64,000 bases of DNA from Candidatus Altimarinota bacterium (GCA_965231215.1 OZ246423.1:864001-928000); one strand, 5' to 3'. Shown: positions 45,827 through 58,959, counted from the stretch's first letter. Program-made: numbers and translations. Notes: a model not told the origin generated them from the sequence alone.

Positions 45827-46741
45827 ATGTCCAGTTTTTCTGTTATCATTCCCAGCTATAATGAAGGTGCGTGGCTTGAACGCACTGTTATGGGCGTACT
45901 GGAGAATACCAATTACCCAGAGTTTGAGATCATTATTGTAGCCGATAACTGCACCGATAATTCTACCGATTTTTGTAAACAAAAATCTATTCCCAACGTA
46001 GTGCTCTTGGAAACTTCACACAATTTGGGAGCGATAGAAGCTCGGAATTATGGCGCTTCTATTGCCGAGGGAGAAAACTTAGTCTTTATTGATGCTCATG
46101 AAGTTCCGGAAACCGATAATTGGATTTCGGTGCTATTTGACTTGCTTGAGAAGCCTAATACGGGAGCGGCAACAATACCGATTTCAAGCTTCGAAGACCC
46201 TCAGAGGATTGGGTATGTGTATCGCCTTAAGGATTTGGCGCTAGAGCCTGCTTGGGAGTCGAGAGAATCAAAACATTTACCATTAGTACCGGTTATTCCT
46301 GGGGGGTGTTTTGCCATTAAAAAATCTGTATTTATCGAAACAGGAGGGTTTAATCCTTTGTTAAAAAAGTGGGGGAGAGAGGACCTAGAATATTCGCTTC
46401 GTTTGTGGCGAATGGGATATGATTTGAGGTCGTCAAAGGCAGCTAAGATTGCTCACGCATTTAGCCATAAAAGAGCATTTGAGATTAGTTGGGATCAGGT
46501 GGATCATAATATTTTGCTTATTGCTGATTTATTGTTTTCCTCAGAGGCGTGTAAAAAAGTTTGTACACATTTAAAAAAGATTCGTCCACAGAATTATGAT
46601 AAAATTTATCAACAATTATTAAATAATGAAGCCTACCAAGCTTACAAAGCAAAACTACTGCTAAAGCGTAGTTTTGAGGACTATAAGATCGAGTTTAAAG
46701 ACTATTTACCAAAAAATTATTCTCTTATACCACAAGTATAA
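45827..46741 (+). CDS. GT2 family glycosyltransferase
   Basis: SVIIP.YNE, DN.TD, ARNYG, FIDAH, WGREDLE. Confidence 0.92.
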   Translation: MSSFSVIIPSYNEGAWLERTVMGVLENTNYPEFEIIIVADNCTDNSTDFCKQKSIPNVVLLETSHNLGAIEARNYGASIAEGENLVFIDAHEVPETDNWISVLFDLLEKPNTGAATIPISSFEDPQRIGYVYRLKDLALEPAWESRESKHLPLVPVIPGGCFAIKKSVFIETGGFNPLLKKWGREDLEYSLRLWRMGYDLRSSKAAKIAHAFSHKRAFEISWDQVDHNILLIADLLFSSEACKKVCTHLKKIRPQNYDKIYQQLLNNEAYQAYKAKLLLKRSFEDYKIEFKDYLPKNYSLIPQV

Positions 46742-47979
46742 AACATTCCAAGCCCTATATTTTTCCAGTCATTATCACTTCCAACTCTTAATGGAGTAGT
46801 GCTATAGCCAATATAACTAGGGACGATTGATCCAAGCTCTCCATGGTTTCCACTTCCCCAACACCATAAAGCACCATCATTCTTTATCGCACAAGAGTGA
46901 GAGTATCCTGAAGCAACGCTTTCCCAAGTGTTCTCACTTCCTACCTGTGTAGGAACCCTCTTACTACCTGTATAGCGTTTTCCCTGACCAAGCTGTCCAT
47001 AGTGATCTCCCCCCCAACACCACAAAGTATTATCTGTTTTTATCGCACATAAGTGTCTTTTTCCTATACCAATACTTTTCCAAGTATCGGTACCAACCTG
47101 AACGGGAGTACTTCGATCTATAGCATCATTCTGTCCTAGTTGTCCATAACGGTTATCTCCCCAGCACCACAAGGTATTATTATTTTTAGTCGCACAGGCA
47201 AATTTATTTCCAAGGTAAATATTTTTCCAATCGTTATCGCTACCAACTTGCACAGGGCTCGGTTGGTTATCTGATGGATCATTACTACCAATTCCAAGTC
47301 TTGAATCAGAATTACTCCCCCAACACGACAAAGTATTATCAGTTGTTATTCCACAAGTATGATCTAATCCTGCTGAAACATCTTTCCAAGTACCAGGTAA
47401 TCGCTTAGGGTAATGTTCATACTCATGAATTCCTCCTTTTCTGCCTATTCCTAGCTTCCCAAGGTAAGTGTGTCCCCAACACCATAACGTATTATCATCT
47501 TTTATTGCACAAACATGTCCAGCTAAACCAAATTCTATAGTATCTGCCAGACTACTTAAGTATGAAGGACTCATTCCCCAACATTGAAGATTATTTCCAC
47601 TTGAAATAGCACAAAAGGAATTCACCCCAATTCCAACTTTGTTCCAACTACTACTTTCAAACTGCTCAGGCTCATGAGTATTTGATAATCCTGGAAGAGG
47701 TGAGCTTCCCCAGCACCAAAGAGCCTCTGGAACATGGCATGCCGAAAATTCAATATTTATGGGTTTATTATTCAGAAAAGAGTGCCATCCTGTGGTGGTT
47801 TGAGTTGGAACAAATCGTTCTTTCCCATCCAAGCTCTTAATTTTTTTACAAATTCCATGAGCATTAATTATTTTATCGGCTGTTCCAATACGGAATCCAG
47901 TAAGAATGGTATTAATTGCAAAAACCTCGTCAAAAAGAAGCAATAACGAAAGTAAGAAAAATAATTTTTTTGTTCTCAT
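46717..47979 (-). CDS. secreted RCC1/BLIP-II beta-propeller repeat protein
   Basis: signal peptide; about 7 repeats of H.CAI..D.TLWCWG....GQLG; ATGA-coupled to the upstream fibre gene. Confidence 0.9.
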   Translation of the reverse strand: MRTKKLFFLLSLLLLFDEVFAINTILTGFRIGTADKIINAHGICKKIKSLDGKERFVPTQTTTGWHSFLNNKPINIEFSACHVPEALWCWGSSPLPGLSNTHEPEQFESSSWNKVGIGVNSFCAISSGNNLQCWGMSPSYLSSLADTIEFGLAGHVCAIKDDNTLWCWGHTYLGKLGIGRKGGIHEYEHYPKRLPGTWKDVSAGLDHTCGITTDNTLSCWGSNSDSRLGIGSNDPSDNQPSPVQVGSDNDWKNIYLGNKFACATKNNNTLWCWGDNRYGQLGQNDAIDRSTPVQVGTDTWKSIGIGKRHLCAIKTDNTLWCWGGDHYGQLGQGKRYTGSKRVPTQVGSENTWESVASGYSHSCAIKNDGALWCWGSGNHGELGSIVPSYIGYSTTPLRVGSDNDWKNIGLGMFYTCGIRE

Positions 47980-49853
47980 AGATTCATAACTTCCTTTAAT
48001 TTATTAATTTGTTCTTGTTGATTTTCAATTAATTTCTGTTGTTGATCCGTTAGTTCTTTCATTTCTTTTAAGGCCTCAACAAGTATGGCATTTATATTTC
48101 CATAGCGAACCGACTTCAGCCCATCCACCTCGCTTGTTTCTACGAGTTCTGGTAGGACTCTTTCAACATCTTGAGCAATGAAACCAATAGAATTTTTATC
48201 AGAATTATTCCATTTAAATTTAACACCTTCTAATTGCTGAATAATTTTTATTGGATTTTTGATTTTCAAAATGTCTTTTTTCAAACGCTTATCAGAGGAG
48301 TAAACAAAATCTGTTGCTAGAACTGTTCCTTCAACATCTAGCTTCTGAGAAGGGGCCGTCGTCCCAATCCCGACATTACCCGTATGCGCAACCGTCATGG
48401 AAGGTGTCCCGCCATAATAGGAATTACCAGCAGCACCATCTACATAAAACCGAATATCCCCTGCATTGGACACCAAACGTATCCAGTTGCTTCCACCTTC
48501 AGAATAAAGCCCTAAATCAGTACCAGAAGCCAACCCCGCTTTGTTGATGATGCCCTCTCGAACCCTCAAACCACCACTACCAATATCCAACGTAGCACTC
48601 GGCGTCGCCGTCCCAAGACCAATATAACCATTACCACCATCAAGCGTAAAGTGCGTATTTTCCCCAACACCACCACCCACATTAATCTTGAATTTATGAT
48701 TATCTGACTGATCCAGTCCTACAGAATACCAAGCATTCCACGGATCATGGAAACGAATTTGCGAGTCAGCATCATTATTCTCAACCTCGATATTCCCGCC
48801 GCGTATCTCTAACTTATTATCCGGATCTGCCGTCCCAATCCCGACATTGCCGCCGACAAGCGCCATGTCAGTTGCAACAGAACGTAAGATAGCCGTATTA
48901 TTACTATCTGTTGTTATATCAAGAATTCTTTGGTCACCCGCTTTATCATTATTAAAAATACTAAAAAATTGATTGTCATCTAGACTTCCTGCTGGCGCAG
49001 CGCCAAGAGCCCTGCCTGCCATTATTATCCCTGAAACATTCAACTTCGCATTAGGAGACTCCGTCCCAAGCCCGACATTGCCATTCGCTGCAATACTCAA
49101 ACCATGATACCAATTGGTACCATCATTATTATAGATAGAGAGCGCATTCGGCGCACCATAAGAAGATGGTCTCTTAACAAAATCTGTAAAGTGTGAGCCA
49201 CCATTGCTACTTTGCAAACGTAACGTATGGCCAGTATTATCCGGCGAAAGAACGTGCAACGGCAAACCAGGCGTCGCCGTCCCAATGCCAACCCTACCGG
49301 TTTCTGTCACTCGCATAAGTTCAGCCCAGTTACCGCCTGGGCCAGCGGCATTTTTTCCGATGACGAGGGCTCGGTTATCATTATCATCATTATTCCAGTC
49401 CATAGAAAGATAAACATTGTCTTCCCCATTTAGCTCTAGAGCTCCATTACTGTCATAAATAGTGCCGCCTCTTACCAGCAGTGTACCATCTATTTGAAGA
49501 TCTCCGTCTTCATCAATGTTGGCTTTATCTGCATCGGCTCCTGTTCCAATCTGAAAGAGTTTTTCATTGGCGGTAGGAGAGGCTTTGTGAATTGAAAAAT
49601 GTGCCGGAAAAGTATCGGTTCCAATACCGACTTTCCCATTAAGATAATAGAGGTCTTGACCGCTGAAATTCCAAACCTGATAGCCTAAAATATCAACAGC
49701 GGTAGAGAGGCTTAGGAGATCAGTTCTTACCTTGTTCCAATCTGAGGCCCGAATAAGTTCTCCACTATTGACAGTGGGAGTGGTTATTGTCACCGCAGCG
49801 TAAGAAGTATTTGAGAAACTGAACAACAGCCATGCAAGCAATAGAGTTCTCAT
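47976..49853 (-). CDS. secreted tail-fibre-like trimeric adhesin with C-terminal S74 autocleaving chaperone
   Basis: signal peptide, GNVGIGT repeats, SDKRLKKDI...GFIAQDVE..LPELV..Y..LVEALKE coiled coil. Confidence 0.88.
   Translation of the reverse strand: MRTLLLAWLLFSFSNTSYAAVTITTPTVNSGELIRASDWNKVRTDLLSLSTAVDILGYQVWNFSGQDLYYLNGKVGIGTDTFPAHFSIHKASPTANEKLFQIGTGADADKANIDEDGDLQIDGTLLVRGGTIYDSNGALELNGEDNVYLSMDWNNDDNDNRALVIGKNAAGPGGNWAELMRVTETGRVGIGTATPGLPLHVLSPDNTGHTLRLQSSNGGSHFTDFVKRPSSYGAPNALSIYNNDGTNWYHGLSIAANGNVGLGTESPNAKLNVSGIIMAGRALGAAPAGSLDDNQFFSIFNNDKAGDQRILDITTDSNNTAILRSVATDMALVGGNVGIGTADPDNKLEIRGGNIEVENNDADSQIRFHDPWNAWYSVGLDQSDNHKFKINVGGGVGENTHFTLDGGNGYIGLGTATPSATLDIGSGGLRVREGIINKAGLASGTDLGLYSEGGSNWIRLVSNAGDIRFYVDGAAGNSYYGGTPSMTVAHTGNVGIGTTAPSQKLDVEGTVLATDFVYSSDKRLKKDILKIKNPIKIIQQLEGVKFKWNNSDKNSIGFIAQDVERVLPELVETSEVDGLKSVRYGNINAILVEALKEMKELTDQQQKLIENQQEQINKLKEVMNL
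48364..48616. repeat. 253-bp direct repeat, copy 1 (copy 2 at 51152-51404)
   Basis: identical by eye; encodes GTATPSATLDIGSG...HTGNVGIG in both fibres. Confidence 0.92.
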
Positions 49854-58840: not shown

Positions 58841-58902
58841 TGGTCTTCTTTTTTAATTTATTTTTTTGAGAAAAGTATACCATTAATAGCTTAAAGGAAA
58901 TC

Positions 58903-58959
58903 TTTTTTCTCACACTTTTATAATACGAGTATCCATGTTGGGTTCAAAGCTAAATTTTC
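58903..58959 (-). promoter_or_regulatory. promoter conserved among the three fibre genes
   Basis: GAAAATTTA.CTTT.AAC-16bp-TATTATAAA(A)GTGTGA also lies upstream of 49853 and 52881. Confidence 0.65.

Follow-up and report, generated by a model that had tools for sequence, protein, structure and literature searches.

The closest described systems are the mosaic adhesive trimer (MAT) fibres of Bdellovibrio bacteriovorus, which comprise S74 and non-S74 subgroups (Caulton et al. 2024, PMC10769870). In the sections of that account drawn on here, the MAT N-terminal domain is described as having no PDB homologue and the N-terminal heads are proposed as attachment modules, SDxxxK is given as the S74 catalytic motif, and the K1F endosialidase and the phage T5 fibre are named as phage proteins with a C-terminal S74 chaperone. 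The finding and holding of hosts by CPR bacteria is largely open: in the papers surveyed, as far as the parts cited here extend, only the type IV pili of Saccharibacteria are an experimentally supported host-adhesion organelle (PMC9894109, PMC11623550). A literature search that included PMC11452946 returned no paper tying S74 or tail-fibre-like proteins to CPR bacteria, and the supplementary lists of MAT-like proteins in PMC10769870 may hold such a link.

Here, a fibre locus was analyzed in a Candidatus Altimarinota bacterium, whose placement among the CPR bacteria in a preliminary description of this DNA was supported. It is rather likely that the locus codes for cell-surface fibres of the Bdellovibrio MAT kind, derived from phage tail fibres, which are chromosomally encoded, Sec-exported and probably trimeric.

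Organization and genomic context of the locus

The window, that is, the whole 64,000-nucleotide stretch analyzed, was found to contain an RCC1 gene and three fibre genes, all co-oriented on the minus strand at 46717-58840, and the four ORFs of the preliminary description were confirmed:

46717..47979, minus strand: RCC1 gene, P0001, 420 aa (ORF with Pfam RCC1, RCC1_2 and WD40_RLD)
47976..49853, minus strand: fibre P0002, 625 aa
50020..52881, minus strand: fibre P0003, 953 aa
53114..58840, minus strand: giant fibre P0004, 1908 aa

The locus is flanked by housekeeping genes, among them rpe, ribE, yidD and those for ribosomal protein L25 and malic enzyme, and a Pfam search of the 17 flanking proteins between 31380 and 64000 gave no phage family, with one of the 17 lacking any Pfam match. 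No tRNA gene was found in the 64-kb window. Genetic code 25, which is used by some Gracilibacteria, was rejected: TGA terminates 55 of the 537 long ORFs tallied, the code would bring only short overlapping extensions in this genome, and the 1908-aa ORF of P0004 includes 267 Gly codons and no in-frame TGA.

The fibres could in principle belong to a prophage, a tailocin or an extracellular contractile injection system. PHROG tail-fibre families match strongly (35 for P0002 and 23 for P0003, many on the C-terminal 100-150 residues), the end of P0004 resembles a baseplate domain, and injection systems use diverse fibres, according to the portion of PMC12923769 cited here. Against this origin stand the housekeeping flanks, the absence of matches to sheath, Baseplate_J, HK97 capsid and Terminase_6N from the complete, single-contig 1.33-Mb genome (rated 99.3% complete), a syntenic position that is conserved in the sister species, and the Sec signal peptides on all four proteins. 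Such signals are unexpected on fibres assembled in the cytoplasm. A phage or injection-system origin is regarded as extremely improbable, and the locus is taken to be chromosomal, as the earlier statement that no phage genes lie nearby had implied.

Export signals and promoters

By inspection, all four proteins begin with a Sec-type signal peptide, in which a short basic stretch precedes 11-17 hydrophobic residues in a row and positions -3/-1 are occupied by small residues:

Minus strand, by inspection: signal peptides at P0001 residues 1-21, P0002 residues 1-19 and P0004 residues 1-25
58841..58959, minus strand: region upstream of P0004, with a promoter-like TTGAAC, 16 nt, TATTAT at 58947-58920 that is common to P0002 and P0003

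In an alignment of 13 homologues, conservation starts exactly past the predicted cleavage site, in keeping with the signal peptides proposed earlier, and the genome has one signal peptidase I gene. The promoters had been called related in all four genes. This holds for the three fibre genes, which have a common upstream element with -35/-10-like hexamers; a loose fuzzy search for it returned mostly chance matches, and near-exact copies were found only upstream of the three fibre genes in the window. The RCC1 gene has no such element of its own, its ATG overlapping the P0002 stop codon.

A sortase is present in the genome, and no LPXTG-type end or other anchoring motif was seen by eye in the translations of the four proteins. 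Given this, and given that two of the fibres end in an S74 chaperone, the proteins could be released.

The S74 fibres and the shared module

The S74 tips ascribed to two of the fibres are well founded, as the PF13884 scores of 56.7 and 58.0 bits exceed the curated cut-off of 22 and both proteins have the SDxxxK catalytic motif:

Minus strand: P0002 residues 20-60, head helix, followed by residues 61-200 (window 49254-49673), shared module
Minus strand: P0002 residues 520-571 (window 48141-48296), S74 chaperone, PF13884, E 3e-15, SDKRLK at residue 520
Minus strand: P0003 residues 852-908 (window 50158-50328), S74 chaperone, PF13884, E 1.2e-15, SDARLK at residue 852

The head and module of P0003 are like those of P0002, with one difference over residues 1-194, and the shafts contain six (P0002) and seven (P0003) GxVGIG-type repeats. 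Residues 464-533 of P0003 match Bd2133 (PDB 8ond) at E 8.8e-7. An AlphaFold model of P0002 residues 20-205 (pLDDT 79.8), in which the module is beta-rich, was searched against the PDB with Foldseek; the ten best matches were Bdellovibrio MAT structures, all of them weak (E 0.016-0.22, none <= 0.001). The best VIA match was Bd1334 (Z 5.5, rmsd 1.7 A, 45 residues, 38% identity), with every Z below 8. The analogy drawn earlier with Bdellovibrio is upheld in that MAT fibres are the nearest solved relatives.

A module of ~135 aa is common to all three fibres, as had been noted; residues 67-201 of P0002 and 262-396 of P0004 are 56% identical. It follows the 40-aa helix in P0002 and P0003 and a different head in P0004, is present in two copies in close relatives and lies far inside the protein in distant fibres. 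No match was obtained by tblastn in 50,697 phage records or by a pattern scan of IMG/VR. Among ten distant module-bearing proteins, whose names are nearly all missing, one is labelled 'MAG: tail fiber domain-containing protein [archaeon]'. The module had been thought to form a common base for surface display, which these positions do not support. Because of the inner position in P0004, the two copies in relatives and the deep position in distant fibres, the module appears to behave as a movable shaft cassette and not as a fixed base, as judged from its placement in the sequences.

The giant fibre P0004

P0004 differs in its head and in its long distal part:

Minus strand: P0004 residues 26-261, head type B, followed by residues 262-396 (window 57653-58057), shared module
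Minus strand: P0004 residues 545-675, 841-964, 981-1107 and 1359-1475, C1q domains (Pfam PF00386)
53117..57640, minus strand: P0004 residues 401-1908, foreign distal part, from GC3
Minus strand: P0004 residues 1790-1908 (window 53117-53473), baseplate/collar-like end, from PHROG and language-model likeness

The four C1q stretches score 152.5 bits (E 8.4e-45), above the curated cut-off, and P0004 matches C1q, C1q-like and cerebellin chains in the PDB by sequence, down to E 3.3e-17. BclA_C gave a sub-threshold Pfam match. C1q has a TNF-like fold. The GC3 per 100 codons is 0.40-0.81 over residues 401-1908 versus 0.30-0.32 over residues 1-400, the genome mean being 0.34 (sd 0.048, n = 536 ORFs). 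A search for the donor of the foreign part found none, the best relative being 34% identical over 28% of the query.

The preliminary description gave P0004 a tail collar tip. Pfam Collar (PF07484) was not found, either with the full-length protein (E <= 0.01) or with its C-terminal 120 or 439 residues (E <= 10), and the control relative P0059 gave a Collar match at E 1.3e-20. Residues 1842-1905 do match PHROG 6459 'tail collar protein' at E 4.9e-4, and in an Atlas language-model search 23 of 30 matches to the end of P0004 lay in T4 Gp10_C baseplate clusters (score 0.94). A single-sequence AlphaFold model of the end was unusable (pLDDT 32). A phage-baseplate-like end on P0004 is thus weakly supported, by PHROG and Gp10_C likeness and not by Pfam Collar.

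The RCC1 protein and its AD domain

P0001 is the sole RCC1 gene product of the genome, and has five RCC1 stretches in Pfam and a PF25390 score of 160.6 bits:

Minus strand: P0001 residues 22-90 (window 47710-47916), AD domain
Minus strand: P0001 residues ~154-420, RCC1 beta-propeller

In the class, 23 of 301 genomes have the N-terminal AD domain (~65 aa). From its distribution it appears to be a new, class-restricted domain that is usually encoded directly downstream of S74 fibres. A word-based homologue search recovered the query's own cluster only, an Atlas search gave scores of only 0.76 and no lead, and NCBIfam gave no match for any of the four window proteins.

Some of the downstream AD-domain partners in relatives carry Hint/pretoxin-HINT domains, which are known from polymorphic toxin systems. 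This would fit proteins that act as released soluble lectins, bacteriocin-like factors or decoys and not as anchored fibres, as would the missing anchoring motif and the cleavability of the predicted signal peptides. Note, however, that Pfam, PHROG and NCBIfam searches revealed no toxin or enzyme domain in the four window proteins, and that the conserved N-terminal heads most plausibly serve for attachment, a role that the cited sections of PMC10769870 propose for those of MAT fibres. Release is considered improbable, and cell-surface fibres are preferred.

Repertoire and cassette exchange

The genome encodes eight fibre paralogues with two head types at three loci. The mosaicism proposed earlier was borne out by blocks common to paralogues, by a tip block common to the sister species and by the foreign part of P0004:

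49276..49927 (P0002), with twin 52304-52955 (P0003), minus strand: duplicated promoter-plus-head block, 652 nt, 5 mismatches, repeat family D1
48364..48616 (P0002), equal to 51152-51404 (P0003), minus strand: shuffled shaft block, 253 nt, 0 mismatches, repeat family D3
46595..48591, minus strand: sister-species block, ~2 kb, ~99% identical, by sliding identity

The first block takes in 74 nt upstream of the P0002 and P0003 start codons. The second is placed differently in the two proteins (residues ~408-496 in P0002 versus ~488-576 in P0003). The third comprises P0002 from residue 421 onwards (its tip), with the S74 domain, the entire RCC1 gene and the last ~150 nt of the convergent glycosyltransferase gene; identity to the sister species per 100 nt is 95-100% within it versus 65-82% in the alignable flanks. 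These alignments and GC3 indicate that cassettes have been exchanged at three levels, between paralogues, with the sister species and, in P0004, with foreign DNA.

The locus is variable among relatives, the sister species having one fibre gene and an RCC1 gene at the syntenic site versus three fibre genes here. Population contigs from three runs of one study contain the junctions 48612|52100 and 51400|52100 at >99% identity to this genome, which yields the sister-type single-fibre architecture as a population variant. Head homologues number 13 at E <= 1.5e-50; S74 was found in one of the 11 outside the window, and the ends of the remaining ten are rich in Cys or Gly. Across the class, 89 of the 301 genomes encode S74 fibres. 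One fibre gene of the sister genome is embedded in a cluster of type IV pilus genes.

One interpretation of these data assigns the proteins a general adhesive role in the surface coat, in aggregation or in biofilms, with self, abiotic surfaces, polysaccharide or a eukaryote as the target and no part in recognizing a bacterial host. The architecture shows only exported fibres with lectin-like ends, the second fibre locus also encodes Ig-like/FN3 and FG-GAP proteins, which are typical of general adhesins, and in a relative the gene for an SLH-anchored propeller adjoins a fibre gene. This interpretation nevertheless appears unlikely, given the rapid swapping of tips, a tip cassette ~99% identical between species whose flanks are at 65-82%, and the multi-paralogue repertoire. 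Such an exchange pattern resembles that of the receptor-binding proteins of phages and of the Bdellovibrio MAT fibres, as far as the latter are covered in the cited sections of PMC10769870.

Discussion

The array was initially read as a candidate host-recognition system, and the three checks proposed with that reading, on prophage origin, signal peptides and variation of the locus, all spoke for it. Export, mosaicism, a non-prophage locus, variation and kinship to MAT fibres are in keeping with that reading; the module as a common base is the part that was lost. The fibres are good candidates for a grip on other cells, with host recognition as a putative role; an epibiotic lifestyle is assumed from the phylum.

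In the proposed mechanism, a cleavable signal peptide is followed by one of two N-terminal heads, which presumably holds the fibre on the envelope. The beta-rich shaft would combine GxVGIGTxxPxxKLxV-type units with the shared ~135-aa module and lead to a variable distal end. In P0002 and P0003 the S74 intramolecular chaperone is predicted to trimerize the tip and then cleave itself off at Ser520 or Ser852, while P0004 would end in a string of C1q (TNF-like) heads and a baseplate-like domain, probably acquired from a higher-GC source. The eight-gene repertoire would diversify by recombination at conserved cassettes, both inside the genome and across species, as well as with foreign DNA. The RCC1 propeller would be co-transcribed with P0002, and its partner family probably docks on S74 fibres through the conserved N-terminal domain.

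A more tentative suggestion, in our view rather unlikely, is that S74 fibres work together with downstream AD-handle proteins, as a system of two components with swappable cassettes that is specific to this CPR class. Once S74 has cleaved itself off, the partner would attach to the fibre by its ~65-aa AD domain and present polymorphic cargo (an RCC1 or LVIVD propeller, Hint, TSP1 or a Cys-rich knot), which may act as a second binding head or effector. If this were so, the near-identical tip-plus-RCC1 block of two diverged species would be a transferable host-range cassette.

The locus provides testable candidates, namely a set of exported fibres of phage type that trade their ends much as phages trade host-range determinants. 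In six families of the class, a previously unnamed partner domain, AD, shows genetic linkage to S74 fibres. Should the fibres bind host surfaces, their tips could serve as probes for the hosts of uncultured CPR bacteria.

Comparison with known systems

The type IV pili of Saccharibacteria share with these fibres a proposed role in host-cell attachment, but belong to another protein class with another assembly route. Like C1q/TNF-like heads (complement C1q, cerebellin and the Bacillus BclA C-terminal domain), P0004 has C1q stretches, four in number, but these are in tandem on a 1908-aa chain with Gly/Ser linkers and no collagen stalk, and do not form a single C-terminal head.

Phage tail fibres and tailspikes with S74 resemble P0002 and P0003 in PF13884, in the Ser-Lys motif and in many PHROG tail-fibre families. 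They differ in that the fibres here have Sec signal peptides, no virion genes of the families searched were found, whether in the flanks or in the remaining genome, and tblastn gave no match to the shared module among the phage records searched. Phage fibre-tip partners, namely gp38-type adhesins and tail fibre assembly proteins, offer an analogy for the RCC1/AD partner: their genes, too, directly follow the fibre gene, and their distal part varies. AD proteins are unrelated to them in sequence and are exported, and their docking on the fibre is putative. The two-component suggestion is also comparable to handle-plus-cargo polymorphic toxins.

The likeness to MAT fibres, as these are described in the sections used here, extends to a signal peptide and, behind it, a beta-rich domain of similar size (about 130 aa) whose homology to the MAT N-terminal domain is putative, a long shaft with capping-loop repeats of the V-G-...-P-x-x-x-L type (the P0003 shaft matching Bd2133), ends with S74 and SDxxxK or with TNF-like and other binding domains (here C1q), and a multi-gene repertoire scattered over the chromosome. 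Trimerization along the fibre and surface display with binding of prey epitopes, further traits of MAT fibres, are putative for the fibres here. In contrast to MAT fibres, there are two unrelated-looking heads here, and the ~135-aa module appears to change place and can occur in two copies. The fibres also differ in belonging to a CPR bacterium with a 1.33-Mb genome, and CPR bacteria probably have no outer membrane. Further differences are the tandem C1q heads in one chain and the linked family of downstream AD partners.

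Organization of the locus and export of its products

Four consecutive open reading frames on the minus strand make up the locus, in agreement with the three co-oriented fibre genes and the RCC1 gene noted in the preliminary description. They occupy the following positions in the window:

53114-58840, minus strand: P0004, a giant fibre of 1908 amino acids with four C1q stretches (Pfam)
50020-52881, minus strand: P0003, a fibre of 953 amino acids with Peptidase_S74 at residues 852-908, at the C-terminal end (Pfam)
47976-49853, minus strand: P0002, a fibre of 625 amino acids with Peptidase_S74 at residues 520-571, at the C-terminal end (Pfam)
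46717-47979, minus strand: P0001, a protein of 420 amino acids with an RCC1 propeller (Pfam)

The S74 domains of both P0002 and P0003 open with an SDxxxK Ser-Lys motif, which is given as the catalytic motif of S74 by Caulton et al. (PMC10769870). Signal peptides could be recognized on all four products, as had been proposed, by a short basic N terminus followed by a hydrophobic stretch, with small residues at positions -3 and -1. These calls were made by inspection of the sequence together with homologue conservation; when 13 homologues were aligned, their N termini were variable up to exactly the predicted cleavage site and conserved beyond it. The genome carries one gene for signal peptidase I.

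The related promoters described earlier were recovered as an element with -35/-10-like hexamers common to the regions upstream of P0002, P0003 and P0004, and near-exact copies of this element were found genome-wide only at those three places. No upstream promoter-like region was found for P0001. The start codon of P0001 overlaps the stop of P0002, and the two genes are presumably co-transcribed.

Chromosomal context

The genome is a single contig of 1,326,059 bp with 39.9% G+C, is rated 99.3% complete and uses the standard genetic code. In-frame TGA occurs within matched genes of some class relatives, as expected where a lineage reads TGA as a residue. The same-genus genome OZ245819.1, a MAG of Candidatus Altimarinota bacterium, is placed in the Patescibacteria group by NCBI.

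Fibre genes of this kind could belong to a prophage, a possibility that was not borne out. The locus has housekeeping flanks, and the hallmark families Phage_sheath_1, Baseplate_J, Phage_capsid and Terminase_6N gave no match genome-wide, while control genomes were matched. Pfam scanning of 17 flanking proteins (window 31380-64000) returned no match to a phage family, consistent with the reported lack of phage genes nearby, and left one protein with no Pfam match at all; the flanking genes include those for GMP synthase, RibD, PBP1, a MacB/HlyD transporter, rpe, ribE, YidD, an M50 protease, ribosomal protein L25 and malic enzyme. No tRNA genes were found in the window.

A shaft module shared by the three fibres

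P0002, P0003 and P0004 share a module of ~ 135 amino acids, which is 56% identical between P0002 (residues 67-201) and P0004 (residues 262-396). At the nucleotide level, P0002 and P0003 have in common a 652-nt block with five mismatches (49276-49927 and 52304-52955), which takes in 74 nt upstream of the start codons, and a 253-nt block without mismatches (48364-48616 and 51152-51404), the position of which within the protein differs.

Searched exhaustively with HMMER against 1.84 billion representatives, the module matched 1693 proteins (E <= 0.001), a number that fell to 104 at E <= 1e-10 and to nine at E <= 1e-30. Full-length matches often lay deep within long proteins, and five of 17 scanned proteins with such a match had an S74 end. 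PHROG family 18345 ('tail fiber protein') matched P0002 at residues 73-202. Among 40 relatives, the module was present in all four other genomes of the genus, in one of the 20 genomes drawn from other genera of its family, where the match was partial and weak, and in none of 16 genomes from other families.

The structure of P0002 residues 20-205 was modelled with AlphaFold from a 34-row alignment (mean pLDDT 79.8). Model residues 17-37 form a helix, and from about residue 70 the model is confident and beta-rich. The ten best Foldseek matches in the PDB were all mosaic adhesive trimer (MAT) fibres of Bdellovibrio (Bd2133, Bd1334, Bd2439 and Bd3182), with weak E values of 0.016-0.22, followed by phage HylP fibres with a triple-stranded beta-helix. 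MAT fibres also ranked top in a VIA-align comparison with 48,161 chains, in which all Z scores were below 8 and the best was Bd1334 (Z 5.5; rmsd 1.7 Å over 45 residues; 38% identity). A separate sequence match was obtained between P0003 residues 464-533 and Bd2133 (E 8.8e-7). Because of its deep placement, the MAT-fibre matches of the model and the match of P0003 to Bd2133, the module resembles a single strand within an intertwined trimeric shaft, and it acts as a recombination cassette. The common base for surface display that had been envisaged therefore gives way to a segment with no fixed cell-proximal position.

Fibre repertoire of the genome

Eight fibre paralogues, totalling ~ 23 kb, are encoded at three loci between genome positions 837 kb and 970 kb, and four of the eight contain the shared module. 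Type A heads, placed behind the signal peptide, are found in P0002, P0003 and the 837-kb gene, and P0004 shares a type B head with four genes at 954.9-970.2 kb. The distal ends comprise S74 in two paralogues and C1q in three, the rest being Cys-rich and other. Two of the four type B fibres at 954.9-970.2 kb carry seven FG-GAP repeats and a C1q end that shares 79% identity with the fourth of the C1q domains in P0004.

Between the two FG-GAP/C1q fibres (genome 953500-971000) identity reaches 90%. The same locus additionally encodes a Big_1/invasin/FN3 protein and a 310-amino-acid open reading frame with a weak RCC1_2 match, whose last 85 residues match the end of a neighbouring fibre at 95% identity. 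At genome 836000-839000, a short type A fibre (a 364-amino-acid open reading frame with the shared module and a Cys-rich end) adjoins an open reading frame of 2618 amino acids.

Exchange of fibre parts

A search of 5.8 billion protein clusters (E <= 1.5e-50) identified 13 proteins with a type A head. Only one of the 11 found outside the window has an S74 end; seven of these 11 have a Cys-rich motif at the end, and a second copy of the module is present in most. The locus is not invariant between species: three fibres are present here, whereas the syntenic site of the sister genome, bounded by the same malic-enzyme and glycosyltransferase genes, holds a single fibre (P0008) and an RCC1 gene.

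Comparison with the sister genome showed 95-100 identical positions per 100 nt across ~ 2 kb (window 46595-48591), a block that takes in the tip of P0002 (residue 421 onwards) with the S74 domain, the whole RCC1 gene and the end of the glycosyltransferase gene. Since the flanking DNA is only 65-82% identical, this points to a recent exchange of the block between species, as judged from sequence identity. A 225-nt piece of P0003 is also 98% identical to the middle of P0008. Contigs from public runs of one study, with > 99% identity to this genome, contained the junctions 48612|52100 and 51400|52100. They correspond to a deletion or recombinant form in which the front part of P0003 is fused to the shared shaft block, as in P0008; the contigs possibly come from the source sample and so show that the variant exists, no more.

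A second fibre gene of the sister genome lies inside a type IV pilus cluster, with PilN/PilO/PilC-like genes on one side and the gene for a PilB-like ATPase on the other, and is followed by a gene for an SLH-domain beta-propeller. The matching type IV pilus cluster of this genome contains no fibre gene.

Composition of P0004

The distal 1500 residues of P0004 (window 53117-57640) have a GC3 of 0.40-0.81, peaking at 0.81 in residues 1101-1200, compared with 0.30-0.32 in the first 400 residues and a genome mean of 0.34 (sd 0.048). The GC3 of P0004 tops that of all evident genes, being exceeded by two open reading frames, one of which is an antisense frame inside a fibre gene. A 431-amino-acid open reading frame (genome 1101652-1102947, minus strand) has a GC3 of 0.56, the second highest of the genome. 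A search for a close donor of the distal part found none. The Pfam tail-collar model did not match the end of P0004, and the tail-collar tip assigned to it in the preliminary description stands as a tentative label.

A domain linked to S74 fibres

Directly behind its signal peptide, P0001 carries a conserved segment of ~ 65 amino acids termed the AD domain (residues 22-90; window 47710-47916, minus strand), for which neither Pfam nor NCBIfam holds a model. This previously unnamed domain is class-restricted. Within the class it was found in 23 of the 301 genomes sampled, which represent 14 of 188 genera, and in a phylum-wide sample of 401 genomes it was found in two, namely this genome and one with a weak match.

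The AD domain is genetically linked to S74 fibres. S74 was found in 89 of the 301 class genomes, within which coordinates were compared by hand: 20 of 31 AD matches were located downstream of an S74 match of the same contig and strand at a distance of no more than 700 nt, usually at a gap of 200-280 nt, and 22 were within 2 kb, the linked matches falling in 18 of the 23 genomes and in six families. The nine unlinked matches comprised one off the S74 contig, three at 4.5-7 kb downstream in one genome and five with no S74 nearby. What follows the domain varies: it may be a propeller, of the RCC1 type in this genome and the sister species and of the LVIVD type elsewhere, or else Hint/pretoxin-HINT, TSP1 or a Cys-rich segment, and in some proteins there is almost nothing. 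We infer that the AD domain would dock physically on the fibre.

Two AD proteins of relatives (L040, 559-1740; L038, 1779-2726) have Hint/intein-like ends of the pretoxin-HINT type with nothing behind them. In one relative (L044, 22-384), a 120-amino-acid open reading frame that resembles the C-terminal end of P0004 and had no Pfam match lies ~ 1 kb upstream of an AD-domain gene.

Comparison with known fibres

The products are most likely exported, trimeric, MAT-like candidate surface fibres, because cassette exchange would diversify their ends, self-cleavage of the S74 ends should uncover the binding tip, and some fibres would additionally carry a partner bearing the AD domain. The way in which tips are exchanged, and the parallel with MAT fibres and with receptor-binding proteins of phages, suggest that the fibres may bind a host or prey.

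No account of S74 or tail-fibre-like proteins in CPR bacteria was found in the literature searched, which included PMC8080830 and PMC11452946. MAT-like proteins of bacteria other than Bdellovibrio are tabulated in the supplement of PMC10769870. Vampirococcus is reported to possess giant surface proteins, built from other domains, and a surface that is fibrous (PMC8080830). Three defining features of the Bdellovibrio MAT fibres (Caulton et al. 2024) were compared, and the signal peptide, a similar shaft and the tip types are all found in the fibres of the window.
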